Translations under genes and position numbers: made by a program
Shown: piece by piece, positions 348 to 29,214 of the stretch
Layout of the letters: every line of letters begins with the position of its first letter
Position numbering within the stretch: the stretch's first letter is position 1
Origin: Acidimicrobiales bacterium
GTDB taxonomy: Bacteria; Actinomycetota; Acidimicrobiia; Acidimicrobiales; Poriferisodalaceae
Assembly: GCA_041394185.1 (NCBI GenBank)
Contig: JAWKIQ010000004.1
Location: 322,075 to 386,074 of the forward strand
Length of the DNA stretch: 64,000 nt
Direction of reading: 5' to 3'
Notes under the pieces: generated by a model
Seen by the model: only the letters and a program-made list of their open reading frames with translations
The model's database searches: none
Told to the model about the DNA's origin: nothing

Positions 348-929
348 CTAGTCCAGGCTGAAGGGCGGGTATTCGTCGGTCAGCAGGAACATGTAGGCGT
401 TGACGCGGTGAGACAGTCTCATCGACTTCAGCACGAAGTCGCGCATGCCCTGGGGCCATGCGCCGGTGAACAGGATGGCGAAGAACGAGATCACCCACAG
501 GATCGCCGCAACGATTCCAACCACCGCCACGAAGAGCAGTGCCGGAATGGCCAGGATGATCCTGAACGCCACCGTCAGGCGGTTGCGATTCTCGAAGGCG
601 ATGTCGAAGTTGGAGATGACCGGCGAGCCACCTGGGTCGGCGCCCTGCATGTCGAACCCAAACGGCGGATAGTCCTCGTAGAGATAGCCGGCGAACGTGT
701 AGGCCCGCTCGCCATAGCGCACAGACATCGCCATGAAGTTGCCCAGCCCGACCGGCAGCTTGCCGGTGAACAGGATGGCGAACCAGGCGATCACGGCCAC
801 GAACTGGGTCGCGTAGTTGAGTGCTTGAGCGATGATCATGTGAGGTATCGCCATCAGCCAGTTGACCAGCGGACGCCATCTGGCGATTTGCAGCGGTGCT
901 TCTAGCTCGAATGTTGCCGGATAGTTCAT
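348..929 (-). CDS. DUF4389-like integral membrane protein
   Basis: An internal duplication gives two copies of the pattern WFAILFTGKLP...YPPFGFD / FFAILFTGAWP...YPPFSLD, which I recall as typical of DUF4389. Confidence 0.65.
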   Translation of the reverse strand: MNYPATFELEAPLQIARWRPLVNWLMAIPHMIIAQALNYATQFVAVIAWFAILFTGKLPVGLGNFMAMSVRYGERAYTFAGYLYEDYPPFGFDMQGADPGGSPVISNFDIAFENRNRLTVAFRIILAIPALLFVAVVGIVAAILWVISFFAILFTGAWPQGMRDFVLKSMRLSHRVNAYMFLLTDEYPPFSLD

Positions 930-1003
930 GGTGCCCCCAGGTGGATGTGACTACATGGTCGTGCCTGGAAGTTACTCCAGAGTTAACGGACAATGCCGCA
1001 GAG

Positions 1004-2293
1004 ATGGATGGCACCGGGCTGTTCGGGGCCTTTTGGGCTAGGTTCTCCGCCTTGCCGCAGACTCCGCCCGCCGATCGCCTCGCAGCGAACCTACGTCTCA
1101 TCGCGCTGCACGAGATGGTCGTCAGGGCCAACCCGTGGACAGCGGTGTTCGTGCTGTTCACGAGGTCGCGTTTCGACCTCGACGGAGCCGTGCAGCTTGC
1201 GGGCATCTACTACCTGTTCGTCGTGCTGTTCGAGGTTCCGAGCGGTTGGATGAGCGACCGCATCGGCAGGGTGCCGACCATCCGCATTGCGGCCGTCGCT
1301 TGGTTGGGGTCGTTCACCTGTTTCGCCGTTGGCGATGATCGGTTCGGCGTCATCGTGGCCGGCCAGGCGTTGCTGGCCGCCGGATACGCATGCTTGTCGG
1401 GCACCGACGTCACCTTCCATTTCGACACCCTCGAGGCGCTGGGTCGAGCCACTGAGTACGCAGATCGCCAGGCCAGGGTCGTCTCCAGAGGAATGGTGGT
1501 CGGCGCCACGGGCTTGCTCGCCGGTGGCCTGGTGGGCCTTGTCGACGTTCGGCTGGCTTTCGTGTTGTCGTTGAGCCTGGCGCTGGCCCAGACGGCCATC
1601 AGCTTTCGGTTCGTCGAGGCGCCTCACGGCGACCGGGCCGACGACATCTTGCGTCAGGTGGGTACGTGCGTTGGCTACCTCCGCAGCGCGCCGATTGCAT
1701 GGATCTTCGGCTATGGCGTGGCGATGGTGGTGCTGGAGCATGTTGCCTTCGAGATGCTGCAGCCGTGGCTGACCGAGGCGCTGGGTCGCTCGCCGAACGA
1801 CCTGGGCGTGGCTCCACTCTTGTCTGGTGCAACTCTGGCCGTCATGACCTTGGTGGGCGCGGCCGCGGCCCGATCCAGCGCGGTCCTGGGCCGGGCGCTG
1901 GGCGTCAGGTTCGCTCTGGTGGCGCTGGGTGCCCTGTCGGCGTGCATCGCCACGCTCATGGCCGCGTCCACGGGTCTGTGGGTGTTGGCACTGATTGCCT
2001 TCAGATCGGTGCAGGGTGCTGCGGCACCTGTGCTCATCAGCGCGTATGTCGCACCACGTATTGAACAGAGGCATCGGGCCACGTTCTTGAGTCTCGACTC
2101 GCTCGCTGGTCGGCTCACCTACGGCGCCTTGCTGTTGATGCTGTCGGTCGATGTCGGCGACGACGTGTCGAGGGTTCTGTGGAGGTTGTCGGCGGTCTCC
2201 TGGACGCTGGTCGCGTTGACGTTGTTGTCGGCGATGTGGGTGCGTCGAAGCCACGGTGCGGCAGGGCTCGACGACGGTCGGACGATGCAGTAG
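1004..2293 (+). CDS. MFS transporter
   Basis: Polytopic hydrophobic protein. The motif FEVPSGWMSDRIGRV is shared with the MFS at 19648. The ATG at 1004 was chosen because the 896 start overlaps the divergent gene. Confidence 0.7.
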   Translation: MDGTGLFGAFWARFSALPQTPPADRLAANLRLIALHEMVVRANPWTAVFVLFTRSRFDLDGAVQLAGIYYLFVVLFEVPSGWMSDRIGRVPTIRIAAVAWLGSFTCFAVGDDRFGVIVAGQALLAAGYACLSGTDVTFHFDTLEALGRATEYADRQARVVSRGMVVGATGLLAGGLVGLVDVRLAFVLSLSLALAQTAISFRFVEAPHGDRADDILRQVGTCVGYLRSAPIAWIFGYGVAMVVLEHVAFEMLQPWLTEALGRSPNDLGVAPLLSGATLAVMTLVGAAAARSSAVLGRALGVRFALVALGALSACIATLMAASTGLWVLALIAFRSVQGAAAPVLISAYVAPRIEQRHRATFLSLDSLAGRLTYGALLLMLSVDVGDDVSRVLWRLSAVSWTLVALTLLSAMWVRRSHGAAGLDDGRTMQ

Positions 2294-2323
2294 CCGTCGC
2301 CGGCACCGCGTAACGTTGCCACG

Positions 2324-3622
2324 GTGACAAACCCTGTTGAACAGGCCGACAACCGGTCGCGCATCTTCTACGGATGGTGGATCGTCGGCGCCTTGTTCAT
2401 CGTGCTGGTGACCACGGCTGGTCTGGGCTTCTACAACGCCTCGGTCATTCTCTCCGCAGCCGAAAAGGAGCTGGGCCTGTCGACCACCGTGGTCTCGGCG
2501 GCCACGGCGATGTTCTTCGGCGTCAGCGGCATCACCGGCTACACCCTGGCCAAGCGGATGGACCAGGTCGACATCCGACTGTTCTATCTGGCCGGCGGCA
2601 TCATGGGCGCCCTGACACTGTTCGGGCTCAAGTGGGTGCACAGCGGCCCGGCCTTGTTCTTGTTCTTCATCGTTTTTGGTGTGTCGTTCGCCATCGCCGG
2701 CCTGGTGCCGTCGACAACGCTGGTCGCCCGCTGGTTCGAAAAGAACCGCTCGGTGGCGTTGTCGGTGTCGTCAACGGGTCTCAGCGTTGGCGGTATTGCG
2801 ATCACACCGTTTGTCGGGCGGGCTCTGGAAGATCACCAGCTCGCCGATGTCGGGCCGTGGCTGGCCTTGGCGTGGATCATCGGGGTCGTGCCGATCACGT
2901 GGCTGGTGCTGCGTTCGTGGCCCGCCGACAAGGGCATGAAACCCGACGGCGAGATGCTGGCCGTCGACGAGAAGGTCGACCTGTCGAAGGTGCCAGGGGC
3001 CACGTTCGCTCAGGCGAAGGCCAGCCGCTTCTATCGCCTGCTGTGCGCCGTCTACGCGCTGGTGTTCCTGGCTCAGGTCGGTGGCATCGCCCACCTGTAC
3101 AACCTCACCAACGGGCGTGTTTCCTCGGCCGCCGCTGGTACGGCGCTGTCTGTTATGGCGGCGTCAAGCGTTGTGGGGCGCCTCATCGGGGGAGTGGTGG
3201 TCACCCGGATTCCCAGCCGCACCATGACGTTGGTGTTGGTGTTGGTGCAGTCGGCCGCGTTGGCGATCATCGGGCTGATGACCACCAAGGCGGGCATCGT
3301 CGCCGGCGCGGTGGTGTTCGGTCTCAGCGTCGGCAACCTGCTGATGCTGCAGCCCCTGCTGTTGGCCGAGACCTACGGGGTGCGCGAGTACAGCCGTATC
3401 TATTCGTTCAACCAGCTGTTCGGCACCATCGGAGTCGCTGGCGGGCCCTTCGTAATCGGTGCCATGAAAGACCTGTTCGACTACCGGGCGGCGTTTCTGA
3501 TCGCCGCTTTGGCCAACGTCGTGGGTTTCGGTCTGATGATCATGGCCGGTTCGACCAAGACGCGCGCTCGACCTGGGAGGCCGAGAACGCCGCTCTGGTG
3601 TGTGATGCCCGGCCGGCCCTAG
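2324..3622 (+). CDS. MFS transporter
   Basis: 432 aa with about 12 hydrophobic segments and GTG start. The N-terminus FYGWWIVGALFIV resembles oxalate/formate-antiporter-like MFS proteins. Confidence 0.7.
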   Translation: MTNPVEQADNRSRIFYGWWIVGALFIVLVTTAGLGFYNASVILSAAEKELGLSTTVVSAATAMFFGVSGITGYTLAKRMDQVDIRLFYLAGGIMGALTLFGLKWVHSGPALFLFFIVFGVSFAIAGLVPSTTLVARWFEKNRSVALSVSSTGLSVGGIAITPFVGRALEDHQLADVGPWLALAWIIGVVPITWLVLRSWPADKGMKPDGEMLAVDEKVDLSKVPGATFAQAKASRFYRLLCAVYALVFLAQVGGIAHLYNLTNGRVSSAAAGTALSVMAASSVVGRLIGGVVVTRIPSRTMTLVLVLVQSAALAIIGLMTTKAGIVAGAVVFGLSVGNLLMLQPLLLAETYGVREYSRIYSFNQLFGTIGVAGGPFVIGAMKDLFDYRAAFLIAALANVVGFGLMIMAGSTKTRARPGRPRTPLWCVMPGRP

Positions 3623-4155: not shown

Positions 4156-4277
4156 AACTTGCGACGAGGACTAGGGCGATGAAGGTTCTCATGGGAGCCA
4201 CGAGACCGCGCGGACGACGGTAAGTCAAGTCACGTGGCGCGCACCGCCACGCAAGGCGCTACCGTATGCAGCCGCAC

Positions 4278-4354
4278 GGGCGCATAGCTCAGTTGGCTAG
4301 AGCGCTGCCCTTACAAGGCAGATGTCGGGGGTTCGAGTCCCTCTGCGCCCACCA
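4278..4354 (+). tRNA. tRNA-Val: tRNA-Val (anticodon TAC), CCA encoded
   Basis: Cloverleaf folded by hand: acceptor GGGCGCA/TGCGCCC, D arm GCTC-AGTTGGCTA-GAGC, anticodon arm CTGCC-CTTACAA-GGCAG, T arm GGGGG-TTCGAGT-CCCTC, discriminator A plus CCA. Confidence 0.93.
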
Positions 4355-4603
4355 TCCAGCTACTACCGGCGCTGATCCGGTCGCGGCCGGTTGCGTCTTT
4401 TGGGTTTGGGCGTACGACACGACCACGAGCTCACCGACGGTTGGGTTGTCGGGATCGTCTCGGGCTCGCAAGTCAGGTATTGGTGGTACAGGTGACGATG
4501 TTCGTATCGACCACACCTAGCACGCATTCGCCAATCCAGCGAGATCTCGTTCGCTACACCGAGTGGTTCCATCCAGACGGAACGACGTGGGCAGGAGCAG
4601 CCG

Positions 4604-5332
4604 GTGGGTGACAGTCGATGCCGGTACCTTGGCCTTCGTTTGTGCCTCGTGGTGTTGTTGGGGATCTCGTCCTGCAGTAGTAGCGAGGCTGAATTGTCGT
4701 GTGCTCGATGGGGGGAGCGCTTCGCAGGGGTATCGCCTGTGCTGAGGGTCGAAGATCATGTGCAGCTGCGAGATAGTGGTTTGCTGCTTGGTGGTGATTC
4801 AGCCTTGCCTTTGAACTCAGTCACTGGAGTTGAACTGGCTGAAGTTCGCTGCATTGCTTCGACACTGACGTCGACACACGTGCTTGCCGAGACCGCTGGC
4901 TCTTTCACAGGCCAAGGCTATGAGGTTTCCGGGAACGAGGGATCTACCGTCGGCCCGGCCGGGCCTGATCGGTGGAATCTGGAGTATGCCGGTTCGGCGT
5001 ATTCCTTGATCGCAGACCGCGGGCCGGTGATGATCTCATTGTCAGGTGGGTTGGTTGAGGATGGGCCTGTAGTCGCTCTTGGTTTGGTGGGTTCTAGTGC
5101 TGATGAGCTGAGCCTTCTGGTGGGTTATGTTGGCCCTGAGGATCTTGTAACGAGTGAGTGGGTGCTCGGTCTCGTGGAGGCCGATGAGCGCGGGTTCCAG
5201 CCCGAGGAAGTCGAGGTACTTCGGGCCGATCCAGGGACGGTCCTGGTGCAAGTCCCGCTTGCGCCGGATCAGTTTTCGGTCATGTCGGATCTCGTGAACG
5301 GGTTCGGTATCGGTTGGGCATGGGAACTTTAG
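4604..5332 (+). CDS. hypothetical protein, possible lipoprotein (N-terminal part only is credible)
   Basis: N-terminus LCLVVLLGISSCSSS is lipobox-like. The 3' third overlaps a minus-strand frame with much better third-position GC, so the true end is doubtful. Confidence 0.3.
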   Translation: MGDSRCRYLGLRLCLVVLLGISSCSSSEAELSCARWGERFAGVSPVLRVEDHVQLRDSGLLLGGDSALPLNSVTGVELAEVRCIASTLTSTHVLAETAGSFTGQGYEVSGNEGSTVGPAGPDRWNLEYAGSAYSLIADRGPVMISLSGGLVEDGPVVALGLVGSSADELSLLVGYVGPEDLVTSEWVLGLVEADERGFQPEEVEVLRADPGTVLVQVPLAPDQFSVMSDLVNGFGIGWAWEL

Positions 5333-5356
5333 CAGTAGCGGAGCTGCCCGTCCGAG
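5042..5356 (-). pseudogene. start-less gene remnant, possibly the C-terminal part of a tyrosine recombinase/integrase
   Basis: The minus frame is open from a TAG at about 5357 with no start codon until a TTG at 5251. Third codon positions are overwhelmingly G/C by hand count, unlike the overlapping plus frame. The pattern HEIRHD...IGLHETEHPLTRY resembles the HxLRH...LGH(x8)Y box of tyrosine recombinases, but the spacing is longer. Confidence 0.3.
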
Positions 5357-5602
5357 CTAAGACCTTGGTATCTGCAAGCCCGCTCGTTCCTGCTGAGGGA
5401 GGGGACGTTGCAGACCTTGTGGAGGTGAGTTGGCTCTGGTTGGAGGTCCATGTGCTATACGAGTTGTGACAGGTGCTGGCTAAGTCGATCGTGGTCAGAT
5501 CGTTCGCTCTCAGTGGCCGCACGAACGGGACGGTAGATGTGGCCATGTGCAGATGTGGGCTCGTGTCTCTTCAGAATCAGCATTTGGAGCCTAAGGAGCC
5601 GA

Positions 5603-6391
5603 ATGTCGGCCAAACATGACAGGGCGGATGCCAACAATCTCGCGGAAATTGAAGCACACTTCGGATTCGATGATGTGGCCGCTGCGCAGAACGTGCTCGC
5701 ACTAATGGATGAGGCATGGCTCTGCACCTATGGCCTGGTCAAGACACCCCCAAAGATCAGGAGTAGGGTCATCCAGCTCGCTAGCGGGGATATCAAGGAG
5801 CTCGCACGCTACGCCCACACGGCAGTTTCTGACTGGCGTCTTCTCTTCGATCAAGCCTCCGATGATGACGAAGAGGCGGTCGATACGGGCCCAATATGGG
5901 AGCGGGTTGAAGAGGGTGGATACTGGGACAGGTTCTACTCGGAGTTCGAGTTCAGCCCAATGAACCGTGAGCCAGACGGTCGTTCGTTCATCGAGCCGAA
6001 GGGAAGTGTTGTCTACTCGCTCGAACCGATCTACTCCGGGCACCACTCAAATGAATGGCTATCCAACGCCGTCAACTTCGCCGTCATCTGGGGTATCTCG
6101 AACAGCCTGAAAGACAGTGAGCCCATTGTGGTTCTCGACTGGCAGCATCCTACTCATCTGCTTTGGCATAGCCGAGCCTCCGAGGTCAGCTATCAGAAGA
6201 TGTTGGGCGAAGTTGCTCCGATTGCCTACTACGACTTCTACGCCTTCCTGAGCGCAGACATGACTTCTGGATCCATCGGCGATCCCTGGAGGAACACGCT
6301 ATGCATTTTCGGGCGCCCGCTCGTCGATACCGTCGAGCCCGTACTGAGCCAGCTTCTGCCTGTACTCCGGGACGACAGGAGCCTTGATTGA
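5603..6391 (+). CDS. hypothetical protein (C-terminal half reminiscent of DUF2716-type proteins)
   Basis: ATG at 5603 is preceded by AAGGAG. The 262-aa ORF has coherent, coding-like codon usage and sits in a lower-GC stretch. VVLDWQHP...DPWRNTLCIFG is recalled only as DUF2716-like. Confidence 0.55.
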   Translation: MSAKHDRADANNLAEIEAHFGFDDVAAAQNVLALMDEAWLCTYGLVKTPPKIRSRVIQLASGDIKELARYAHTAVSDWRLLFDQASDDDEEAVDTGPIWERVEEGGYWDRFYSEFEFSPMNREPDGRSFIEPKGSVVYSLEPIYSGHHSNEWLSNAVNFAVIWGISNSLKDSEPIVVLDWQHPTHLLWHSRASEVSYQKMLGEVAPIAYYDFYAFLSADMTSGSIGDPWRNTLCIFGRPLVDTVEPVLSQLLPVLRDDRSLD

Positions 6392-6839
6392 AGTTAGGAG
6401 GCCTTCTCGCCCCTTCCGGATTCCACGTCAGCCTTCTTGGTGCCTGGGTCGTGTACATAGCCGAATGCGTCAAGCCAGACGTCGTCGGTCGATGGCAGTA
6501 AGGGCACGTGCCACCCTTTATCGACACTATTCGGTGCTTGATCTTGAGAACGCATGGCGATTCGAGCCAGCGACCGGGCTTTCGCGGTTGGATCGGTCGG
6601 ACTTGGTTCTAGTGGTTGACAGCCTGGGCGTGGTGCGGTGGATTCGCCTGGAGTGCGGAGGCCTCTTTCGGATATCGGCCTATAGGTTGTGAGCCCTCGG
6701 TCAGAGAGGGCCGGTGGGTGCATCGATGGGCCGCTGCCGGAGCGGCGCCGACATTGGCGGTGTCCTCGATCGAGGTCATGGAGTCGGCTCGGTGCCAGCC
6801 TGGGATGGCGGGCGTTCGCACCGGTTAGGTTTGGTGAGC

Positions 6840-7505
6840 ATGGGGCGGATCCGATCGACTGCAGGATGGGTGTTCGTCGCGATGCTGACGGCGGCGGTGT
6901 TGGCCGTAGGCGGTTGTGGAGACGACGACAGCGGCCAGGGCACCCAGGGTGAAGACCTCACCGAGGCGGGCCGCGGGTTCGTGGGGACGGTCGAAGGAAC
7001 CGACGCCTTCGTCGCCCTGTTGTTGGGTGGCGGCGAAGCAGTCGTATATGTCTGCGACGGGTCGCAGGACATCTCCGAGTGGTTTGCAGGTCCAGCGGAA
7101 GGGTCGGGAATCGAGCTCAGCAACGAGGTCGGTGCCTCGGTCTCGGCGACTCTGTCCGACACTGGCTACCGCGGGTCGGTGACTCTCGGCGATGGGGAGC
7201 GCCACGAGTTCGAGGCCGTGGCGGCCGAGCCGGGAGCCGGGCTTCTGCGCATCACCGGACCGGAGGCAGAAGCCGACGGTGTTGTGGCCGGATGGATCGT
7301 CGACAACGATGGTGACTACCGCGGATCGCTGCGTGTGGGCGGATTTTCGAGAACACCGCCCGCGGCGCCAGGTGGATCGGTGAGTCTCGACAACACCAGC
7401 TACCCGGTGTCGGTCTTCCTGATTCCGCCTAAGACACCGGCTACGCCTCCGGGCGTTCCGATCCCTTATCCGAACATCGGGATGGCCGCTACCGCCACGC
7501 GCTAA
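6840..7505 (+). CDS. lipoprotein of unknown function with PAAR-like (DUF4150-type) C-terminal motif
   Basis: MGRIRSTAGWVFVAMLTAAVLAVGGCGDDD is a signal peptide plus lipobox. The C-terminus reads FLIPPKTPATPPGVPIPYPNIG. Confidence 0.65.
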   Translation: MGRIRSTAGWVFVAMLTAAVLAVGGCGDDDSGQGTQGEDLTEAGRGFVGTVEGTDAFVALLLGGGEAVVYVCDGSQDISEWFAGPAEGSGIELSNEVGASVSATLSDTGYRGSVTLGDGERHEFEAVAAEPGAGLLRITGPEAEADGVVAGWIVDNDGDYRGSLRVGGFSRTPPAAPGGSVSLDNTSYPVSVFLIPPKTPATPPGVPIPYPNIGMAATATR

Positions 7506-7542
7506 GGCTCCGCCATGTGAACGAGGCCGCCCCGGCCGTGAC

Positions 7543-10500
7543 CTACACCGGATCGGCCAGCGCCACCACGACCTGACGATTGCCGGTGTACGGATCTCGG
7601 CTGTGTGCCATGGCGATGTTGTCGACGAACAACAGATCGTTGGTGCGCAACGGTTCGCTGATCGCACACTTGTCATAGGCGGCGTTGATCGTTTCGACGA
7701 CGTCGGGCCCGATCGGGTCGCCGTTGCCGAACCGGGTGGTGAACGGCAGCCCGTCCTCACCGTAGGTGTCGATCAAGAACTGGCGCACCTCGGGTTTCAT
7801 GGTCCACTCGTTCAGGAACGCAATCTGGTTGAACCAGCTGCGTTCTCCGGTGACGGGGTGCTTGATCACTGCGTCGCGGCGTTGCCTTGTGATCAAGCTG
7901 CCGTCGGGTCGCCATTCGTGGTCGATGCCGTTGTCGCGGCAATAGCGCATGATCGCTGCCCGATCGTCGGTTCCGAACGCCTCGCCGACGGACAGGCCGA
8001 TGTCTTCGCTGTAGCAACGGCACAGCATCCAGCCATGGCGTTCGAAGCGCTCGACCAGGTCGCCAGGAAGGTGGCCGAGCACCTCCGATGACCTTGCCAG
8101 CGAAATCGCGCCACCGCTCTCGCCGGCCTGCAAGCACCCGAAGATGATCTTCGATGGGAACCGGTGTACGTAGCTGAGCTCGTGGTGCATACACATCTGC
8201 TGGTTGGCCGGCCACTGCGATGAGGAGTAGATCCGTGGCGAATGCTCGATGCGTTCGGCGAAGGCCTCTGTGTCTCGGGCCAGTTCGTCTGCGATGCATC
8301 GAGCTGCCGCTGCGAACAGGTCTGGTCCGTTGATGGTCAACCCCCTGACCAGCACGGCACCATGTTCGGTAATAGCCGATCGGAGCGCGGCCTGATGGGC
8401 CGCAACCCATCGGTCGGCGGGTTGCTTGTCATCGACGACGACTAGCGGGGGTCGACCTTCGCCGAGCGACACCTCGAAGGGCTCGGCTTCGGCTCCTTCG
8501 GCGCCAACCCGAGCCGCGGACGTATGGCCCGATTCGGGTTCGCTCGCTTCGGCTGCGACGTCCTCGCCGAGCATCACCTGGCGAACGACTCCAGCTGCGA
8601 GCGACGGTTCGGTGCGGATGAAGAAGTGGCCGCCGCGTTCGAGTTGTATCAACCGGACTGTTTCGGCAAAGCGCTCCCACTCGCCGAGACGCGACGACGC
8701 ATCGGCCGTCGCATCGTCGCCGGCGGCTGAGACGACGATGAGCGGTGTCGCCATCGGTTCGGCGGCCGAACTCTCGAGCTCGTTGATGAAGAAGCGACTG
8801 GCGTTGGAAACGTCGTGTCGATACGCAGCGCCGAGCTGTCCCAGCTGACCTGCGTCGAGGTGCTCGATTTCGGCGTAGCCCGTGGCTTCGAGAAGAGACG
8901 TCGCCATCTTGCGGTCACTCATGGCCGACAGGTCGTCCAGGAACGACCGCCGGAGGGCGACGTCGCCGGGCATCTGGGCGGCGACGAACACAGCCGCCAG
9001 TTCGACACCTTTGTTGCCCAGTCGTCGGGCTACCTCCAAGGCCAACGCAGTTCCAGCCGAGTGCCCCCAAAGCGCCACCGGGCGTTCGCTCAGGGCCGCG
9101 ACCTCGGCAGCGACCCTGTCGGCCACCTCGCCAAGTGGCACGAAATCGTCGTCGTTCTCGCCCATGTCGTGGCCGGGCAACTCGACGGCATGTACCGCCA
9201 ACCCTGATCCGCTCAGTGCTTGTGCGAGCGCCCGAAAGTTGATGGCATTCCCACCCGCGTACGGCATGCACACGAGAACACCGTTGCGTCCGTCGTCGCT
9301 GTCGGACAGTCGCTGCAACAAGCTGTCCGACGTGGCCTCGTCGCCGTCGAGTACGCAAGCCAGGTCGGCCAGCACGGGTGTGCCTGTGACGTCCTTCAGC
9401 GTCACGGCACCGTCGAGAGCCACGACCAGCTCGACCGCCGACAGCGAGCTGCCTCCGCGATCGAAGAAGTTGTCTCGCCGTCCGATCTCGTCGACGGGAA
9501 CTGCGAGAATGCCCGACCATATGTCGGCCAGTCGCCGTTCGGTGTCGGTGCTGAGCGGCTCGTAGTCGTCGACGGGACTGTCGAGCTCGGCCGCCAGCGC
9601 TCTCAGCGCCTTCTTGTTGATCTTGCCGTTGTCGGTCAGCGGCAACGATTCCATCCAGTGGAACACGGTCGGCACCATGTACTCGGGCAACGAACGACCG
9701 AGGTGGTCTTGCAGATCGGCCGCAGAACAGTGGGCGCCCGAGTGGAAGGCGACGAGATGCTGCTCGCCATCTGATTTGTCGGTGACGACGACGGCCGCCT
9801 GTCGCACGCCATCGCGGGTCAGCAGGGTGTTCTCGATCTCGCCGATCTCGATTCGAAAACCGCGGATCTTCACCTGAGCGTCGCGGCGCCCGAGGTACTC
9901 GAGCTTCCCGTCGGGACGCCACCTGCCGAAGTCACCACTCCGATACAAGCGTTCACCCGGGCGGATGGGGTCGGCGAGGTATGCCTGGGCGGTGCGGTCT
10001 GGATCGTTGATGTAGCCCCGACCCACGCAGATACCCGAGAACACGATCTCGCCAGGTGCGCCAAGTGGAACGGGGGCGAGGAACTCGTCGACTACATAGA
10101 CGTACACATTGTTGACCGACGGCCCAAGTGGCACGGTGCCGTAGGGCGCTTCGGTCATCACCTCGTGGTTGGTGTCGTCTGAAGTCTCCGTCAGACCGTA
10201 CGCGTTGGCGAGCTTGATGCCGTCGAGCGACCGGAAGAACCGATGCGCCAGCTCGAGGCTGAGAGCCTCGCCGGTGACCGATACACAGTGCAGGTCGGAC
10301 AGTTCGACCGGGTGTTGTTCGAGGTATGTCAGCAGCACTTCGAGGTACGAAGGCACCACCTGCATAACGCCGACCTTCGCTTCGACGATGAGCTCGGCGA
10401 ACCGGTCGGGCTGCATGATGGTGTCCTGGTCGACGATGAGCGTCGAGCCACCAACCAGCAGCGACGACACGAGCTGCCACAGCGAGATGTCGAAGCACTG

Positions 10501-11172
10501 GGGCGCGATCTGGGCGACAATCTCACCCTCGCCGATGCCGAAGTCGTCGATCTTGGCGTAGAGGTGGTTGATCATTCCGGCGTGCTCGCACATTGCGCCC
10601 TTGGGTTCGCCCGTCGAACCCGAGGTGAAGTAGATGTAGGCCAGCTGATGCAGCCCGACAGCGATGTTCGGGTTCGTTACCGCCGCCGAACTCGCGAGCA
10701 TGTCTTCGACATACAGCTGCCTGGAGGGTGGCAGCGAGCTCAGCGCCTCGGTCAACGTTTCGGTGCTGCCCCGCTCGGTCACGATCAAGGTGCAGCCCGC
10801 CCGGGCCAGGGTTCGCTCGATGCGGCCTGGAGGGAAGTGCGGTTCGATGGGCAGATACACCCCACCCGCCTTGAAGACGCCCAGCACCGACGCCATCCAC
10901 CCGAGGTTTCGTTCGGTGACGACGGCTACCACCGTTTCGGTTGTGACACCGTTCTCGATCAGAGAATGGGCGATACGGTTCGCGTTCTCGTTCAGCTGGG
11001 CGTACGTCCACGCGTCGCCTCGACAGCGCGCTGCGATCGCGTCGGGATGACGTTCGGCTCGCTCTTCGAAAAGCTCATGCATGCGCTTGTCCGGCAGCTC
11101 GCGTTCAGGCCCGCTGAGCCCTTCGATCTGGAACTCGAGTTCGTCGGCTCCGACGACGCTGTGGCGAGCCAC
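7543..11172 (-). CDS. NRPS-like protein: adenylation - PCP - thioesterase - TauD/TfdA-type Fe(II)/2OG dioxygenase
   Basis: A-domain motifs: YFTSGSTGEPKGA, QCFDIS, YGLTET, GEIVFSG..GRGY, YRSGDFGRW, KIRGFRIE. PCP: FFDRGGSSLSAV. TE: WGHSAG. The C-terminal about 300 aa carry MHHE (HxE) and a distal AHSR. The GTG start at 11172 overlaps the upstream TAG (TAGTG). Confidence 0.85.
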   Translation of the reverse strand: MARHSVVGADELEFQIEGLSGPERELPDKRMHELFEERAERHPDAIAARCRGDAWTYAQLNENANRIAHSLIENGVTTETVVAVVTERNLGWMASVLGVFKAGGVYLPIEPHFPPGRIERTLARAGCTLIVTERGSTETLTEALSSLPPSRQLYVEDMLASSAAVTNPNIAVGLHQLAYIYFTSGSTGEPKGAMCEHAGMINHLYAKIDDFGIGEGEIVAQIAPQCFDISLWQLVSSLLVGGSTLIVDQDTIMQPDRFAELIVEAKVGVMQVVPSYLEVLLTYLEQHPVELSDLHCVSVTGEALSLELAHRFFRSLDGIKLANAYGLTETSDDTNHEVMTEAPYGTVPLGPSVNNVYVYVVDEFLAPVPLGAPGEIVFSGICVGRGYINDPDRTAQAYLADPIRPGERLYRSGDFGRWRPDGKLEYLGRRDAQVKIRGFRIEIGEIENTLLTRDGVRQAAVVVTDKSDGEQHLVAFHSGAHCSAADLQDHLGRSLPEYMVPTVFHWMESLPLTDNGKINKKALRALAAELDSPVDDYEPLSTDTERRLADIWSGILAVPVDEIGRRDNFFDRGGSSLSAVELVVALDGAVTLKDVTGTPVLADLACVLDGDEATSDSLLQRLSDSDDGRNGVLVCMPYAGGNAINFRALAQALSGSGLAVHAVELPGHDMGENDDDFVPLGEVADRVAAEVAALSERPVALWGHSAGTALALEVARRLGNKGVELAAVFVAAQMPGDVALRRSFLDDLSAMSDRKMATSLLEATGYAEIEHLDAGQLGQLGAAYRHDVSNASRFFINELESSAAEPMATPLIVVSAAGDDATADASSRLGEWERFAETVRLIQLERGGHFFIRTEPSLAAGVVRQVMLGEDVAAEASEPESGHTSAARVGAEGAEAEPFEVSLGEGRPPLVVVDDKQPADRWVAAHQAALRSAITEHGAVLVRGLTINGPDLFAAAARCIADELARDTEAFAERIEHSPRIYSSSQWPANQQMCMHHELSYVHRFPSKIIFGCLQAGESGGAISLARSSEVLGHLPGDLVERFERHGWMLCRCYSEDIGLSVGEAFGTDDRAAIMRYCRDNGIDHEWRPDGSLITRQRRDAVIKHPVTGERSWFNQIAFLNEWTMKPEVRQFLIDTYGEDGLPFTTRFGNGDPIGPDVVETINAAYDKCAISEPLRTNDLLFVDNIAMAHSRDPYTGNRQVVVALADPV

Positions 11173-12125
11173 TATTGCCCCGGGTCGTCGCACAGCAGAC
11201 GTAGCGCCCGAACGTGGTACCCGGCGATTCGCGTCGCGTATTCGGCGCTGAAGTGGCTGGTGTGATGCCGCACCCTCAGGTGTGAGCCGGCGATGCCCCC
11301 GTACACGCCGACACCCAGCCACACGGCGTCTGGGAGCGAGCCGGTGTTGTCCAGCGACCCCACCACCGTCTCGAACAATGGCGTTTCGAGGTTCAGGTCG
11401 GATCGCAGCGCGCCCAGGTCGAACCCGGCGTGCCTGGTCGCGTCCGCGGCGACCGAAGCCGCATCGCCAACCAGCTCACCGAAGGTCTTGTCGCCACCGA
11501 TGCTGAGGTGGCACGGGAGCGCGACTTGGACCTCGTCGTCGGGAATCAGGCCCATGACGACGTCGCGTTCTCCGGTGAGCGACGCCACAACGTGCGTGTG
11601 CGCCGCCAACAGGACCGCTGTGACCGAGGTGTTGAATCGCTCCGACAGGTCGCGGACCCGAGCCATCAATTCTGTGTCGATGCCGACACTCGTGTCGGCG
11701 ACGCGATCGGTGAGGTCGATCGTCCAACGCGGTAGCGGTGTGAAACCGCCAGACATCAAGACGTCGTGCCAATAGCGCCTGCTGTCCAGTGTCTCAATCG
11801 GTGCGTTGGTGGTTGTTGTTGCATCTGTCGTGGTCGACACGAGTTCCGCCCCCTGGTCTATATGTATGAGTGCTTCGAGCTCGCGGCTGGGGTTCTCGCC
11901 CCAGTGGCTGCCCGGCACGACGTCGCTTCCCTTCATCAGGAACGAGGCCGCATCGAGCGTCGCTCCGTCTCCCATCGTCACGCCGTAGTGCACGAGGCTC
12001 CCGACCCCGAGCGTGACTCCCGATCCGATGACGATGTCGTCGGACTTGAACGAGCCGTCTTCTTGCGAGTGCGGCTGGATGAGAGAACCTGCGTTGAATA
12101 CGCAGTCATCGCCGATGGTGACCAT
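11172..12125 (-). CDS. hexapeptide-repeat (LbH) segment continuing the upstream Pls/PosA-type domain, fused to a C-terminal half of a condensation domain
   Basis: MVTIGDDCVFNAGSLIQPHSQEDGSFKSDDIVIGSGVTLGVGSLVHYGVTMGDGA is LbH. Then YWHDVL..PLP, LLAAH..LTGERDVVMG and PLFETVV resemble condensation motifs C4-C7. No HHxxxDG motif is present. Confidence 0.7.
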   Translation of the reverse strand: MVTIGDDCVFNAGSLIQPHSQEDGSFKSDDIVIGSGVTLGVGSLVHYGVTMGDGATLDAASFLMKGSDVVPGSHWGENPSRELEALIHIDQGAELVSTTTDATTTTNAPIETLDSRRYWHDVLMSGGFTPLPRWTIDLTDRVADTSVGIDTELMARVRDLSERFNTSVTAVLLAAHTHVVASLTGERDVVMGLIPDDEVQVALPCHLSIGGDKTFGELVGDAASVAADATRHAGFDLGALRSDLNLETPLFETVVGSLDNTGSLPDAVWLGVGVYGGIAGSHLRVRHHTSHFSAEYATRIAGYHVRALRLLCDDPGQ

Positions 12126-12131
12126 GGTCTT

Positions 12132-14375
12132 TTAGATGAGTGCGCAGCCGTCGTCGAACAGGCGCTTGCCAACCCGAACCCCGTAAAGCCGCCACATGAC
12201 GCTCTTGAACGGCGTGCCGTTGAACACCGCCGGCTGCGAGCTGAGCTTCCAGAACCGTTCGATGCGCCACGACCTCCGGTCGTAAATCGAGCAGTGCATC
12301 GGTTCGAGGTCGCGGAACCCGATGCTGGCGCGTTCGGCAACCGCCAGATAGACCGGAGCGACGATGGCTGTAGCGATGGCCGTCGCGAACAAGCCCAACG
12401 GGCCGAGCGCATCGAAAGCGTCTATGGCGCCTACAGCGACTGCAACAACCGTGGTGGTCAACAGATACCGATGCGACAGGCCCAAGATCATCGAAGCGAT
12501 GTTGCTTCGGTTCTTCGCCCTCAGCAGGCGCGGGAACTGCTCGCTCTCACGAAGTTCGGCGAACTCTTGATCGCGAAAAACCGATCGAGGTATCTCGAAC
12601 GCGGGCGATCCGAGGAATCCGACTCCGTCGCGTCGTTCGCCGGATGTGGGTACAACCGTCTTCGACGCCAGCAGGCAGTTGTCGCCGACGGTGCTGTGGG
12701 ACGGGTAGAAGATGTTGTTGCCGAAGAAGCTGTCGGAACCAACCCGAACCTCGTTCACCCTAAACGACGTGCTCGAGTAGTCGTTGTTGAGTGCGTAGAA
12801 GCCGTCGGCGGCCATGGTGCCTGGACCGACCGAGACGTAGTACGGGTTCTCGTGGACGACGCTGGTTCCGAAGTTCGACCCTGTCTGCTTCTCGAACGAC
12901 ACGTCGTATCCGATCAGCTTCAGGTAGTGGACGATGTAAGAGGTGTCCCCGAGCAGCCAGGTCCAGAACTTCGAGTTCGTGAAACGCTCGATTCCGCGCT
13001 GAGCCATGTAGTGAAGGCCGTAAAGGCTGTACGTGGTGTTCGGCCGGACAAACACCGACAGGACTCGTCCCGCCGCCACCGCAAGTGCGAGGCGAACGAC
13101 CATCAGGGTCACGAACACCAGCCCGGACAGGATCAGAACCGATACAAGGTCGAAGCCCGCCGAGATACCCAGGAAGCTGTCGGTCTCACTCATCGCCCAA
13201 CGCCAGTCGGCGAGCGCTCCAAACGCCACCGTCGGGAGCGGGAGGGTGACGAGCAGGTGGAACGACAGCTGCAGTAGGCCGTAGCCGAACCGTCGACGGG
13301 TGGACGCGAGGCCCGCTTCGACGGCCATGTAGTCGACGTCGCTATCGGTCGTGGCGGGCACGCCGACCCGTCGCTGGCCCGCAGGGATCGACTGGCCGAC
13401 CCCCAGCGAAGACGAATGGCCGAGTTGGGCGCCGTCGCCGACCTCGCTGTCGATCTCGAGGACGGTGGCTTCACCGACGAACGCGTTGTCGCCGATGCGC
13501 ACCGTTCCGGTCTGGATGACCGAGCCGGTTGCCCTGTAGCCACTGAACACTGCCGAGCGCCGGATCACCGCGCCAGATCCGATAGAGATGAGGTCGGTGC
13601 AGACAGGCATTCCACGAGAGAAGATCACGGCGCCTTCGCCTATGCGGGCGCCGAGCAACCGCAGGTACACCGGGAAGACGGGTGTGCCGGCGAACAACAC
13701 GACCGGATTTGCCCGAAGCGCTGTCTTGACGAGCCAGAAGCGGAAGTATCGGAGACTCCAGATGGGAATGGTCTCCACCTTGAAACGACCGACAAGGGTC
13801 CACTTGAGTGCAACTGGGAACAGGGCCAGGCCTACGAAGTGTCCGCTGCCCACGATGATCGCCCGCAGGTATGTCTGGACCGCTCCAGAACCGTTCGCCA
13901 CCCACTCGTATCCAAACGACAGGGTGAGCGACAGTGCCAGGGCGGTGACGATGAACGTTGCGAGCTGCAGTGCTCCGCACAGCCAATACGAGGCCGTCGA
14001 TGCTGGGGCCGCCGAGGAGTGCAGGGTCGTGCGCGGTCCGTCGGTATCGCGTTGTCCCGCTCGATTGTCGGAATGGGACGTCTGTGCGATCGCTATCTGG
14101 TGCTCGAGGTGATCGGCCAGCCGTGCCGCCGTGGGGTTCTGGTAGACGTCCTTTATTGCCACAGGCGGCAGGCCCGGAACGCTGCGCAGGCGAGCGCAGA
14201 GTTGGGCGATCAGCAACGAATCGGCCTCGAGCTCGTCGAAGAAGTCGGCGTCGGCGTCGATGCCGTCACGTTCGAGTACCGACTCGAGCGCGATTGTGAG
14301 CGCCAGCAGAATCGAAGACTGTTCCTTGCGGATCGCGACCTGTCCAGCTCGGGAAATGGCTCCTGCTCCACCCAT
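12132..14375 (-). CDS. carrier protein (PP-binding) fused to Pls/PosA-type membrane-embedded hexapeptide domain (TIGR02353-like), ended by an in-frame TAA
   Basis: DFFDELEADSLLIAQL is a PP-binding Ser motif. It is followed by alternating TM blocks and LbH stretches (IGEGAVIFSRG..., VSVGPGTMAADG..., VGKRLFDDGCALI*). The start is uncertain: ATG 14375 has GAGGGG upstream, and ATG 14402 is the alternative. Confidence 0.7.
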   Translation of the reverse strand: MGGAGAISRAGQVAIRKEQSSILLALTIALESVLERDGIDADADFFDELEADSLLIAQLCARLRSVPGLPPVAIKDVYQNPTAARLADHLEHQIAIAQTSHSDNRAGQRDTDGPRTTLHSSAAPASTASYWLCGALQLATFIVTALALSLTLSFGYEWVANGSGAVQTYLRAIIVGSGHFVGLALFPVALKWTLVGRFKVETIPIWSLRYFRFWLVKTALRANPVVLFAGTPVFPVYLRLLGARIGEGAVIFSRGMPVCTDLISIGSGAVIRRSAVFSGYRATGSVIQTGTVRIGDNAFVGEATVLEIDSEVGDGAQLGHSSSLGVGQSIPAGQRRVGVPATTDSDVDYMAVEAGLASTRRRFGYGLLQLSFHLLVTLPLPTVAFGALADWRWAMSETDSFLGISAGFDLVSVLILSGLVFVTLMVVRLALAVAAGRVLSVFVRPNTTYSLYGLHYMAQRGIERFTNSKFWTWLLGDTSYIVHYLKLIGYDVSFEKQTGSNFGTSVVHENPYYVSVGPGTMAADGFYALNNDYSSTSFRVNEVRVGSDSFFGNNIFYPSHSTVGDNCLLASKTVVPTSGERRDGVGFLGSPAFEIPRSVFRDQEFAELRESEQFPRLLRAKNRSNIASMILGLSHRYLLTTTVVAVAVGAIDAFDALGPLGLFATAIATAIVAPVYLAVAERASIGFRDLEPMHCSIYDRRSWRIERFWKLSSQPAVFNGTPFKSVMWRLYGVRVGKRLFDDGCALI

Positions 14376-14582
14376 TGGAAGCCCCTCAGAGTCGCGGCGC
14401 ATGCCGTTGCGCCCGCTACTTCGACTATTCGCCACCTGCCGGCGGTGTCCAGGGCCCTTGGTCCCAGTTGCAGTTTGAGTAGCGTTGTTTTTGGGCTGAT
14501 AACTCTCTTCGTGGTGATGGCATCGCTGCAAGTGTCGAATTGATAGGTGTAACCACACCGGCTCGCGACCGTCTAGAAGGAC
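14376..14582. promoter_or_regulatory. divergent intergenic/promoter region between the NRPS-like operon and the rSAM operon
   Basis: About 200 nt non-coding, locally less GC-rich (gtttgagtagcgttgtttttgggctgataactc...gaattgatagg). It is flanked by outward-facing genes. No specific -35/-10 could be assigned. Confidence 0.35.
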
Positions 14583-16356: not shown

Positions 16357-17379
16357 ATGAGCGTTGAAATCACCGAGCACACTCTGAAGAGCGACCGGCA
16401 CACCACCGGCTACCTGGCCGCCGGCCCTGTGGACGGGCCGCTGTTGGTCTTCGTGCACGGCTGGCCCGAGCTGTCGATCTCGTGGCGAAACCAGCTGCCG
16501 GTATTTGCCGGACTGGGATTCCGGGTGATTGCGCCGGACATGCGCGGATATGGCCGGTCGTCGACGTACGACCGGCTCGACGCGTTCTGCCAACTCGAGA
16601 TCGTCGCCGACATGCTCGAATTGCACGACCATCTCGGCGGGCCCCAGCGGAGTGCGATTTGGGTAGGCCATGACTGGGGAGGCCCGGTTATGTGGAACAT
16701 CGCCAGCCATCATCCCGATCGTTGCCGAGCGGTCGCGAGCTTGTGTGTTCCCTACGCCACGGTCGAGTGCGGCCTCGACGCTCTCGTCGAGCTGGTCGAC
16801 CGCGACGTGTATCCCGAGGATCAGTATCCGGCCGGTCAGTGGGACTACATGCTGTATTACCGCGAGAGCTTCGAACGGGCCAGCCAAGTCTTCGGCGCCA
16901 ACGCCTACAACATGGTCAGGGCTCTGTTTCGCAAGGGCGACCCGGGTGGTGTGGGAAAGCCGGCGTCGACCGCCAGCATCCGGGCTGGCGGCGGCTGGTT
17001 GGGAGGTGCCGACGAGTTCCCCGAGCTTGCGATGGACGCAGACGTCGTCACCGAAACCGACCTACGGTTCTACGCCGCCGCGCTCGACCGCAACGGCTTC
17101 TTCGGGCCAGACGCCTGGTACATGAACCACGAGGCAAACGCCGAGTACAGCCGCGAGGCCGTCAACGGCGGCCGGCTGGACATGCCGGTGCTGTTCCTCC
17201 ACGGTCGATACGACTACACGTGCCAATCCGTCGAGTCGCGGCTGGCCGAACCGATGCGCGCCCTGTGCTCGAATCTGACCGAGCACATCGTCGACAGCGG
17301 ACACTGGATGGCCCAGGAGCGCCCGGCCGACGTCAATCGCCACCTCGCCGACTGGCTCTTCCGCGTGGTCGGGGCTTAG
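16357..17379 (+). CDS. alpha/beta hydrolase, epoxide hydrolase/haloalkane dehalogenase-like
   Basis: HGWPELSISWRNQ and the GHDWGG nucleophile elbow, with a C-terminal DSGHW motif. Confidence 0.8.
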   Translation: MSVEITEHTLKSDRHTTGYLAAGPVDGPLLVFVHGWPELSISWRNQLPVFAGLGFRVIAPDMRGYGRSSTYDRLDAFCQLEIVADMLELHDHLGGPQRSAIWVGHDWGGPVMWNIASHHPDRCRAVASLCVPYATVECGLDALVELVDRDVYPEDQYPAGQWDYMLYYRESFERASQVFGANAYNMVRALFRKGDPGGVGKPASTASIRAGGGWLGGADEFPELAMDADVVTETDLRFYAAALDRNGFFGPDAWYMNHEANAEYSREAVNGGRLDMPVLFLHGRYDYTCQSVESRLAEPMRALCSNLTEHIVDSGHWMAQERPADVNRHLADWLFRVVGA

Positions 17380-17969: not shown

Positions 17970-18935
17970 TCACCCAGCCGTCGCGGCCAGGCCGATCTCT
18001 CCCAACAGGCCGATGCGGTCGACTATGTGGCCGTTGGCCGGCAGGTTCATCGTGATGCCGTCGATGCCGGTGTCCATACATGCCTGCAGCTTCTCGCCGA
18101 CGGTGTCTGGGTCGCCGTAGATCAACACGCCCTTGGCCATTTCGATGATGGCGTCGTTCCAACCCTTGGCCTCGGCCACGCTGCGCAGGTCGGCCTCGGC
18201 CTGCTCCATCGTCGGCGCGACCAGCACCATCAACAGCTTGGTGACCTTGATCTGCGAGCGGTCGCGGCCCAGTCGTTCGCAGTGGGCGGCCAGGGCGTCG
18301 AGCTTGCGGGGGATCTCTTCGACGGTGCCGGTCAGGTTCGACTCGTCGGCGTACTGGGCCACCATGCGAAGTGTCTTCTGCTCGCCCGATCCGCCGATCA
18401 TGACCGGGATGCGCGAGATCGGAGCCGGCGAGTTGACGGCGTTGTTCACCTGATAGTGCTTGCCCTGGAGGGTCACCGTCTCTCCGCGCAGCATCGGGAC
18501 GATGATCTGCAACGCCTCCTCGAGCTTCTCGAAGCGGTCGGTGAAGGTGCCGAATTCGTAGCCGAGCGAGTTGTGCTCGAGCTCGAACCAGCCGGCGCCG
18601 ATGCCCAGCGTGGCTCGCCCGCCCGACACGTGGTCGAGTGCGGTGATGGTCTTGGCCAGCAGGGTCGGGTGCCGGTAGGTGTTGCCCGTCACCAGGGCCG
18701 AGAGCCTGACCGACTGGGTGTGCTGGGCCAGCGCCGACAGCATCGAGTAGCACTCGAACATCGGCTCGTCGGGGGCGCCGATGCCGGGCAGTTGGTAGAA
18801 GTGGTCCATCAGGAACACACGGTCGAAACCTGCGGCCTCGGCTGCCTTTGCCTGCGCCACCACGTTGCCGAAGATCTCGGCCCCGTCGATGCCTGGATAG
18901 GTGAAGTTGGGAATCTGGTAGCCGAGCCTGGTCAT
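17970..18935 (-). CDS. LLM-class (luciferase-like) F420-dependent oxidoreductase
   Basis: MTRLGYQIPNFTYPG...GFDRVFLMDHFYQLPGIG resembles the Rv1855c-type LLM family. Confidence 0.8.
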   Translation of the reverse strand: MTRLGYQIPNFTYPGIDGAEIFGNVVAQAKAAEAAGFDRVFLMDHFYQLPGIGAPDEPMFECYSMLSALAQHTQSVRLSALVTGNTYRHPTLLAKTITALDHVSGGRATLGIGAGWFELEHNSLGYEFGTFTDRFEKLEEALQIIVPMLRGETVTLQGKHYQVNNAVNSPAPISRIPVMIGGSGEQKTLRMVAQYADESNLTGTVEEIPRKLDALAAHCERLGRDRSQIKVTKLLMVLVAPTMEQAEADLRSVAEAKGWNDAIIEMAKGVLIYGDPDTVGEKLQACMDTGIDGITMNLPANGHIVDRIGLLGEIGLAATAG

Positions 18936-18982
18936 CGGAGGAGCTCCTCGTTGGTGAGTACCTGACGCAAAGGCCAGATTTC

Positions 18983-19000
18983 GTCAGGTCGAAACCTGAC
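18983..19000. promoter_or_regulatory. candidate TetR operator (perfect inverted repeat GTCAGGT-cgaa-ACCTGAC)
   Basis: Located in the divergent region between the LLM gene and the TetR-MFS operon. A third CCTGAC half-site lies at 18961-18966. Confidence 0.4.
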
Positions 19001-29182: not shown

Positions 29183-29214
29183 GAGACGACCCTCGAAACT
29201 GTCGATTCCATGAG

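Follow-up and report, generated by a model that had tools for sequence, protein, structure and literature searches.

A probable diaminopropionate-specific Pls/PosA-type synthetase with permuted domain order and an interrupted reading frame in an Acidimicrobiales bacterium

In the epsilon-poly-lysine synthetase (Pls)/PosA family of nonribosomal peptide synthetases (NRPSs), an adenylation (A) domain is followed by a peptidyl carrier protein (PCP) domain and then by a membrane domain, and it is this terminal membrane domain that polymerises the amino acid iteratively. Cationic homopoly-amino acids (CHPAs), of which epsilon-polylysine is an example, serve to preserve food and have been studied as cell-penetrating carriers; to our knowledge, only a handful of CHPA polymers and their synthetases are known, all of them with the A-PCP-membrane order. 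Three minus-strand open reading frames (ORFs) that together occupy positions 7543-14558 of a 64-kb stretch of contig JAWKIQ010000004.1 from an Acidimicrobiales bacterium (64,000 nt, hereafter the window) encode these parts in another order, together with half of a condensation (C) domain, a second carrier, a thioesterase (TE) and an oxygenase domain. The locus is probably an order-permuted Pls-type synthetase that is specific for L-2,3-diaminopropionate (Dap) and belongs to a widespread branch of the Pls/PosA (CHPA) family.

Several described systems bear on such a locus. In SyrB1/SyrB2/SyrC and CmaA/CmaB/CmaE, an A-PCP unit holds an amino acid on which an Fe(II)/2-oxoglutarate (2OG) enzyme acts while it is tethered, and an alpha/beta-hydrolase then shuttles it to the carrier on a condensing enzyme without its own A domain; the active-site residue of SyrC and CmaE is Cys, and SyrB2 and CmaB are halogenases without the carboxylate ligand. 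The TE of ObiF1, from obafluorin biosynthesis, forms a beta-lactone and has a catalytic Cys. For one Dap polymer, the comb-like multi-Dap-poly-Dap, we know of no assigned genes. That polymer and beta-poly-L-Dap, which is made by the canonical PDAP synthetase, are the known Dap polymers (PMC9606270). The PDAP synthetase of Streptomyces albulus PD-1 (EXU85975.1) uses L-Dap made by a pair of enzymes, one ornithine-cyclodeaminase-like and one cysteine-synthase-like, of the PALP family (PMC4668381). Characterised CHPA synthetase A domains have Glu at specificity-code position 3 (PMC10522769), a pocket described as ‘mode 1’ diamino-acid binding (PMC12042044), and in the PDAP synthetase Phe and Glu occupy positions 2 and 3, respectively (PMC10522769). 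The A3 domain of SulM from the sulfazecin pathway (PDB 9N1V) was crystallised with L-Dap and has the code D V W E M N A D D, in which Asp8 and Asp9 bind the beta-amine (‘mode 3’); in its BLAST homologues position 2 is occupied by Ile and position 4 often by Gln, and mode 3 was found in no known biosynthetic gene cluster except sulfazecin (PMC12042044). In the CmnA-A1/CmnI pair of capreomycin biosynthesis, a Dap-specific A domain is reported to load an A-less module in trans (PMC12400406).

The first of the three genes, read along the minus strand (12132-14375; MEZ5282634.1, 747 aa, named a Pls/PosA family NRPS by NCBI), lies in an open frame of 12132-14558, the NCBI start being placed at 14375, and encodes a carrier and the first ~88% of a Pls/PosA membrane polymerase domain before it ends at a TAA codon. 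The carrier, PCP1 (14106-14291), matched PF00550 (E=1.9e-7) and possesses the Pls-type motif FFDELEADSL, with the phosphopantetheine-attachment Ser at nt 14217-14219, exactly where a preliminary description made from the letters of the sequence had placed it. Against TIGR02353, which represents the Pls/PosA C-terminal domain, ORF1 scored 497.8 bits over profile positions 2-611 of 695; the NCBI curated cutoff of 423.1 bits was taken as the membership threshold, and the proposed Pls/PosA identity of the 12132-14375 product was therefore borne out. A Kyte-Doolittle hydropathy scan, on which the membrane layout is based, placed the hydrophobic segments in three pairs with soluble stretches between them, and hexapeptide- or acetyltransferase-type matches were obtained in all three soluble stretches, in agreement with the alternating transmembrane (TM) blocks and three hexapeptide stretches described previously. 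The complete TIGR02353 domain (11889-13979, minus strand), built of three TM pairs interleaved with three soluble domains of hexapeptide/LbH type, contains the in-frame TAA (12132-12134) at the site of a conserved Glu that is encoded by GAA in sibling alleles. Further LbH sequence had been noted beyond this stop, and the first 80 codons past it indeed complete TIGR02353 (positions 615-694, 91.6 bits).

These codons belong to the second gene (11172-12125, minus strand; MEZ5282633.1, 317 aa), named a DapH/DapD/GlmU-related protein by NCBI and present as the exact protein in NCBI and in three ENA contigs, in which the last ~80 residues of the Pls C3 domain are fused to the C-terminal lobe of an NRPS condensation domain (halfC, 11205-11813). 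This region of ~220 residues reached 33.7 bits against PF00668 (cutoff 30.6), at profile positions 193-276 only, and with a profile of 23 homologues the matches to solved C domains were confined to their C-terminal lobe, from about residue 200 to residue 430 (McyA 8jbr, residues 202-432, at 9e-20; AmbE 7r9x; TycC 2jgp). Neither an HHxxxDG motif nor an N-terminal lobe was found in halfC, which is thus not a two-lobed catalytic C domain, just as the preliminary description had it. A TAGTG overlap (11170-11174, minus strand), made up of the stop TAG 11172-11174 and the start GTG 11170-11172, joins halfC to the third gene (7543-11172, minus strand; MEZ5282632.1, 1,209 aa), which NCBI names an amino acid adenylation domain-containing protein. 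Its product has the order A-PCP2-TE-TauD, comprising an adenylation domain (9622-11070; PF00501, 252 bits, and PF13193; code DIWQSTADDK), the carrier PCP2 (9409-9534; PF00550, E=3.2e-7; FFDRGGSSL, Ser at 9445-9447), a type-II-TE-like thioesterase (8611-9276; PF00975, 76.6 bits; GHSAG, Ser at 9058-9060) and a TauD/TfdA-family Fe(II)/2OG oxygenase domain (7567-8403; PF02668, 101.5 bits; MHHELSY ... AHSR). The HxE...H triad of the TauD domain is complete (HHE...H) and the motif is kept in relatives; the catalytic motifs of PCP1, A, PCP2, TE and TauD are all intact in the window. These domain scores are far beyond chance, and the elements of the preliminary description, among them the two carriers, the half C domain, the TAGTG coupling, the TE with its GHSAG motif and the oxygenase, were all confirmed at their given coordinates.

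Species-representative genomes were scanned with ORF3 and at least 592 stretches were confirmed by tblastn. The best 80 of these, which match ORF3 residues 3-1209 at 51-59% identity, were domain-mapped; locus counts refer to this set, with smaller denominators for the loci that had enough sequence. Nothing close to the window organism was found among the species representatives, the top ORF3 match being at 59% identity. The usual cassette was PCP-Pls / halfC-A-PCP-TE / TauD / SbnB-like / SbnA-like, and gene calls in the loci L003, L004 and L005 gave the same cassette. The Pls domain lay upstream of the A gene in 70 of 72 loci, as it does on the same strand in the window, and halfC was within the A-domain ORF in 78 of 80. 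TauD was present in 79 of 80 loci (usually as a gene of its own, fused in 2), an ornithine-cyclodeaminase-like (SbnB-like OCD) gene in 69 of 70 and a PALP-family (SbnA-like) gene in 68 of 70. The fusion of TauD to the TE seen in the window recurs in L003, L004, L018 and L037. Ser was the TE active-site residue (GHSxG) in 83 of 85 relatives' TE segments, the motif not being found in the other 2, and an HSQEDGxFK motif was kept in about 73 of 79 relatives' Pls segments; the window has HSQEDGSFK within nt 12039-12077. In protein searches, PCP(x1-3)-Pls proteins without an A domain, 810-1,030 aa long, came up by the hundreds in Streptomyces, Amycolatopsis, Pseudonocardia and metagenomes, together with very many halfC-A-PCP-TE proteins, with TauD fused or not. 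The cassette layout is the norm of a large family and not a one-off. The window locus is a divergent member, in which the order, the code, PCP2-TE and TauD fit the cassette but the halfC-A frame and the Dap genes do not. The earlier remark that no example of this layout had been described holds for the literature, as no papers on the split or permuted cassette or its sub-family were found in the openly searchable literature, subscription-only papers lying outside that search; it does not hold for the databases, which already call these proteins ‘Pls/PosA family NRPS’.

The same parts also occur as single polypeptides. Locus L018 (6812-13615), in a metagenome-assembled genome (MAG) labelled Actinomycetes bacterium Vin_2, is one ORF of 2,268 aa with the order PCP-Pls-halfC-A-PCP-TE-TauD; it is collinear with the window genes, with 48% identity to ORF1, 41% to ORF2 and 56% to ORF3, and for all three it is the top match among the matches listed. 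Its flanks contain sulfatase, TauE, amidase and MFS genes. No Dap genes were found within 10 kb of L018, and no flanking genes common to it and the window were found besides the synthetase. Shorter single chains were present in two orders, halfC-A-PCP-Pls at about 1,590 aa (P0004, P0005, P0007, P0008, P0012, P0014, P0015, P0017, P0018, P0022 and P0023) and PCP-Pls-halfC-A at 1,478-1,608 aa (P0006, P0011 and P0041). Both forms are directly followed by cyclodeaminase-like and PALP genes wherever the neighbourhood is visible, and in the four loci whose neighbourhoods were inspected they have one carrier, of the PCP1 type, and lack TE and TauD. Because single polypeptides occur in both orders, the circular permutation is real, and to that extent the preliminary label ‘circularly permuted, split’ was right; a designed split is contradicted by L018, in which the ORF is intact, whereas in the window locus a nonsense codon, which is polymorphic, and the deletion of 1 nt interrupt the frame. 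With somewhat better than even confidence, we regard the three window ORFs as fragments of one collinear synthetase, PCP1-Pls-halfC-A-PCP2-TE-TauD. A 4'-phosphopantetheinyl transferase (PPTase) gene lies directly upstream of P0011 and P0041, and in the metagenomic loci L002 (9189-10004) and L086 (7420-8004) such a gene overlaps the start codon of PCP-Pls-halfC-A, which suggests dedicated priming of the N-terminal carrier at these two loci.

Further Pls-type genes were seen beside some cassettes. In L005 (Pseudonocardia xinjiangensis CP192009.1, 6244609-6267854), a span of 20 kb contains three Pls-type genes, namely a canonical A-PCP-Pls (code DFQCLSVVA), the cassette PCP-Pls and a further PCP-PCP-Pls, and a second PALP gene is present. 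In L044 and L082, an A-PCP(x2-3)-Pls protein with a PDAP-like DFE code stands in for the A-less PCP-Pls; as an A domain of DFE type is thus part of the Pls protein itself, these loci have side by side two A domains that differ but are both predicted to activate Dap. Proteins with PDAP-like DFE or DFQ codes therefore adjoin the cassette in L005, L044 and L082 as genes distinct from it. One ENA protein, P0108 (1,369 aa), is a PCPx2-Pls with a Pro/Ala-rich N-terminal extension of ~430 residues containing tandem ‘TGDQTTALPV(V/I)’ repeats.

At the site of the TAA, relatives have Glu or, rarely, Asp, and the stop cuts the last ~84 residues from the Pls domain, inside its third soluble domain. A sibling contig, L001, with 99.3% identity to the window, has GAA at this site, as does a second NCBI MAG in which MCB0990909.1 is an uninterrupted PCP-Pls-halfC protein of 1,067 aa; the TAA is present in the ENA contigs L087, L088 and L089, which are independent assemblies with 99.3-99.6% identity to the window. 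The Pls domain is thus uninterrupted in L001 and MCB0990909.1 and interrupted in the window and L087-L089. Because it recurs in three further independent assemblies, the TAA is a real segregating allele and not an error. A reading of the TAA as a one-off recent lesion, based on L001 alone, was dropped in view of the diverged TAA haplotypes and the intact 1,067-aa allele. The Pls/halfC boundary is also polymorphic (window 11874-11875 versus L001:2904-2905), a single base setting whether the two are fused or separate. In L001, a 1-nt deletion ends Pls cleanly after TIGR02353 and the genes are separate, whereas they are fused in the window, MCB0990909.1 and L087-L089, and this polymorphism mirrors the two states found among distant relatives. 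The break between halfC and A corresponds to one base missing in a CCGGGGC run compared with the continuous halfC-A frame of relatives, and the resulting TAGTG junction is common to all sibling contigs (L001 and L087-L089). The attachment of halfC to the Pls product, as first described, is consequently correct for the window but not for the family, where halfC nearly always shares its ORF with A. Differences between alleles were mostly synonymous: 15 synonymous and 6 nonsynonymous between the window and L001, and 20 to 7, 13 to 4 and 3 to 1 between the window and the other TAA haplotypes, the TAA-bearing haplotypes from four assemblies being 0.4-0.7% different. The synonymous excess was also found past the stop and in the A domain, so the genes have stayed under constraint. 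An ATG lies 6 nt past the TAA and a GTG overlaps the TAG, and judging from these start codons the pieces could be made by coupled translation.

The specificity code was extracted by aligning the family A domains to a GrsA sequence entered by hand, which itself returned the canonical DAWTIAAICK. The code DIWQSTADDK was obtained for the window and was identical in 84 of 85 family A domains. It agrees with SulM A3 in the pattern D-[V/I]-W-x-x-x-A-D-D-K, including both of the Asp residues that bind the beta-amine of Dap, and its Ile2 and Gln4 match the description of the uncharacterised SulM A3 homologues (PMC12042044). SulM A3 itself differs in its context, a tripeptide monobactam NRPS, in code positions 4-6 and in showing only moderate similarity over the whole domain (252 bits). 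As the code fits mode 3 and relatives carry Dap-synthesis genes, L-Dap is the best prediction and most likely the substrate of the A domain. In the window, the 3.3 kb downstream of ORF3 (4200-7540), which correspond to the site of the TauD, SbnB-like and SbnA-like genes of relatives, have a lower GC content (0.60) and no ORF with the GC3 signature of the genome. Lipoprotein-like ORFs lie there at 4604-5332 and 6714-7505 (both plus strand), a DUF2716 protein is encoded at 5537-6391, and the segment may be foreign or decayed DNA that has replaced the Dap genes.

Compared with Pls, PosA and the other CHPA synthetases, the window locus has the same TIGR02353 domain scoring above the cutoff, the same TM pairs and three LbH domains, a Pls-type carrier (LGADSL-like) directly upstream of them, and a predicted substrate that is likewise a cationic diamino acid. 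Unlike in those enzymes, only the PCP precedes the membrane domain, and the A domain follows it in another ORF; the code has Asp at positions 8 and 9 and no Glu at position 3; halfC, a second carrier, TE and TauD are added; and the frame is interrupted twice. The reversed order relative to the characterised enzymes, which the preliminary description had emphasised, was recovered in the homologous loci. In its mode of action, the window locus most probably resembles the CHPA synthetases. With the PDAP synthetase it would share the L-Dap monomer and, in its relatives, the Dap-forming enzyme pair, although the former has the canonical A-PCP-membrane order and no TE, TauD, halfC or second PCP. The likeness to the SyrB1/SyrB2/SyrC logic is one of parts list only, but under that logic the presence of two carriers and of a PCP-Pls without an A domain would make sense. 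Where SyrC and CmaE have Cys, the cassette TE has Ser (GHSxG) in all relatives in which the motif was found, and in contrast to the halogenase site of SyrB2 and CmaB the HxE...H triad of the window TauD is complete. The trans-loading idea of CmnA-A1/CmnI is the same, the acceptor there being an ordinary NRPS module and not a membrane polymerase (PMC12400406). Among solved structures, the TE is closest to the ObiF1 TE (PDB 6n8e), which is also cis-acting with a type-II-TE-like fold but differs in its Cys, the window TE having a Ser nucleophile.

In the mechanism proposed for the locus, the A domain would adenylate L-Dap, as predicted from DIWQSTADDK and the SbnA/SbnB-like genes of relatives, and would load it onto PCP1, in trans in the split arrangement and in cis in L018 and the single chains, and probably onto PCP2 too. 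Loading of PCP1 is expected because the cassette usually has one A domain and because the single chains have only a PCP1-type carrier. By homology to Pls, PosA and the PDAP synthetase, the six-TM, three-LbH Pls domain would act at the membrane, where it would repeatedly join Dap carried on PCP1 to a free amine acceptor by an isopeptide bond, and would release a cationic Dap oligomer or polymer. PCP2-TE-TauD may form an accessory branch for oxidative tailoring of carrier-bound Dap followed by release or by shuttling to PCP1, which is speculative; it is read as an add-on because the split and fused cassettes have it and the four minimal single-chain loci do not. HalfC would be a non-catalytic scaffold, retained as a structural platform for the A domain. 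After the ObiF1 TE (6n8e, at 2e-32), the nearest solved relatives of the TE were RifR-type TEs. Structure matches of TauD were distant (1y0z at 4e-24 and 9yut at 3e-20, representing At3g21360 and sulfoquinovose dioxygenase), and no substrate assignment for TauD was obtained from these solved relatives, the function of At3g21360 itself being unknown. A sequence search found no solved structure resembling the TIGR02353 domain, except that the last LbH resembles maltose/galactoside acetyltransferases; as the alignment near the conserved His runs two residues out of register with the acetyltransferase catalytic loop, no catalytic residue is claimed. A bolder version of the scheme, in which Dap is loaded, tailored by TauD, passed on or released by the TE and used by the A-less membrane polymerase, so that a new two-carrier Pls-type pathway would give an undescribed modified or branched poly-Dap, is in our opinion unlikely. 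Were it true, the recurrent TAA allele under purifying selection would mean that the third soluble Pls domain works in two pieces.

A number of findings count against a Dap-specific synthetase at this locus. Code position 3 is Trp and not the Glu that is usual in CHPA synthetases, and over its whole length the A domain is closer to LgrA (637 bits, in two matched stretches) than to SulM A3, so that the code match could be convergent. In the 64-kb window, no OCD or PALP gene was found by tblastn with the L003 proteins, and no PPTase gene was found either. The stop leaves the family-conserved HSQEDGxFK off the main Pls polypeptide, and halfC is uncoupled from the A domain to which it is joined in relatives. 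The own DFE-type A domains of the L044 and L082 Pls proteins imply that trans-loading is not always required. Dap hydroxylated at C3 would be an unstable hemiaminal, which leaves the TauD step without obvious chemistry, and we know of no member of the sub-family with a known product.

Part of this evidence would be accounted for if the locus were a decaying, non-functional remnant in the window strain, with the family function perhaps holding elsewhere, and this is a serious possibility that falls somewhat short of an even chance. A nonsense codon at a conserved Glu that removes ~84 Pls residues including HSQEDGxFK, a 1-nt deletion in a frame continuous in 78 of 80 relatives, the missing OCD, PALP and PPTase genes, the lack of a GC3 coding signature over about 4200-7540 downstream of ORF3 and the three structural alleles of the Pls/halfC region that segregate in the population all speak for decay; yet the differences among the TAA haplotypes are mostly synonymous before and after the stop as well as in the A domain (20 to 7, 13 to 4), the catalytic motifs of ORF3 are all intact, and the ATG 6 nt past the TAA and the GTG at the TAG permit coupled translation. 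The missing Dap genes alone are no sign of decay, since they are also absent beside the intact L018. We would not be surprised if the window strain's copy were inactive, but would not assume it. The preliminary description had itself named an assembly artefact, such as a contig mis-join within a normal A-PCP-Pls gene, as a possible source of the layout, to which a sequencing error can be added. The source is indeed a metagenome-assembled genome, but the order and junctions recur in independent assemblies from the same population (L001, L087, L088, L089 and MCB0990909.1) and the order in at least 70 other genomes; with the order conserved in 70 of 72 relatives and the TAA in three independent assemblies, this explanation was rejected as having almost no probability.

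The other alternatives concern what the family makes. The minimal single chains, with A, PCP, Pls and halfC next to Dap genes, hold the parts list of known polymerases, and every TIGR02353 enzyme characterised so far polymerises iteratively (PMC4668381, PMC10522769), which makes it unlikely that the synthetase is not a homopolymer synthetase at all and that PCP-Pls performs one or a few ligations, giving a small Dap-derived molecule such as an oxidised or cyclised Dap dipeptide or placing Dap on a membrane or cell-wall acceptor. This alternative draws on the extra PCP-TE and oxygenase, which are typical of small-molecule NRPS logic, on the proximity of the TE to the beta-lactone-forming TE of ObiF1, on the PDAP-type synthetases with their own A domains beside the cassette in L005, L044 and L082, which hint at a different role, and on the lack of a known product for the cassette. 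A substrate other than Dap, such as Ser, Thr, 2,4-diaminobutyrate (Dab) or another small polar or cationic amino acid, would explain the absence of OCD and PALP from the window and from beside L018; SulM A3 pocket mutants retain modest Ser/Thr activity (PMC12042044), and code positions 4-6 are unlike those of SulM A3. We nevertheless hold it to be improbable, given that the code is the same in 84 relatives, nearly all inspected ones of which lie beside SbnA/SbnB-like genes, and that Asp8/Asp9, Trp3 and Ile2/Gln4 fit the published mode 3 (PMC12042044). An order-permuted, Dap-specific Pls-type synthetase therefore remains the reading that we prefer.

Elsewhere in the window, a radical SAM/SPASM protein (MEZ5282636.1; 14807-16018, plus strand) is encoded divergently from the PCP-Pls gene and is followed by an alpha/beta hydrolase (16357-17379); in the relatives inspected, the radical SAM/SPASM gene lies outside the cassette, and together with the hydrolase it could represent a separate peptide-maturation system. 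Three minus-strand genes within 20 kb of the locus (17970-18983, 27680-29281 and 29665-30786) code for a pair of luciferase-like monooxygenases and for an AMP-binding enzyme that stands alone and resembles acyl-CoA synthetases, and two MFS transporters are encoded at 866-3622. A gene for a DUF222 and HNH endonuclease protein is present at 21010-22512 (minus strand); in Actinomycetota, such genes are often multi-copy and mobile-like.

These results expose a large unstudied branch of the Pls/PosA family, whose value lies in the family rather than in the degenerate copy in the window; with its uncultured organism, its nonsense allele and its lack of Dap genes, that copy is the least suitable for study. 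The family spans Streptomyces, Pseudonocardia, Amycolatopsis, Saccharopolyspora, Acidimicrobiia and Thermoleophilia, with the parts in both orders and either split or fused, and it combines unusual elements, namely a predicted Dap pocket for which sulfazecin has so far been the sole example, a TE with an additional carrier, and an oxygenase of the Fe/2OG type. It may thus serve as a genome-mining target for a new Dap-based polymer, and it offers a natural experiment on the modularity of Pls enzymes, in which putative trans-loading, circular permutation and domain splitting can be compared.

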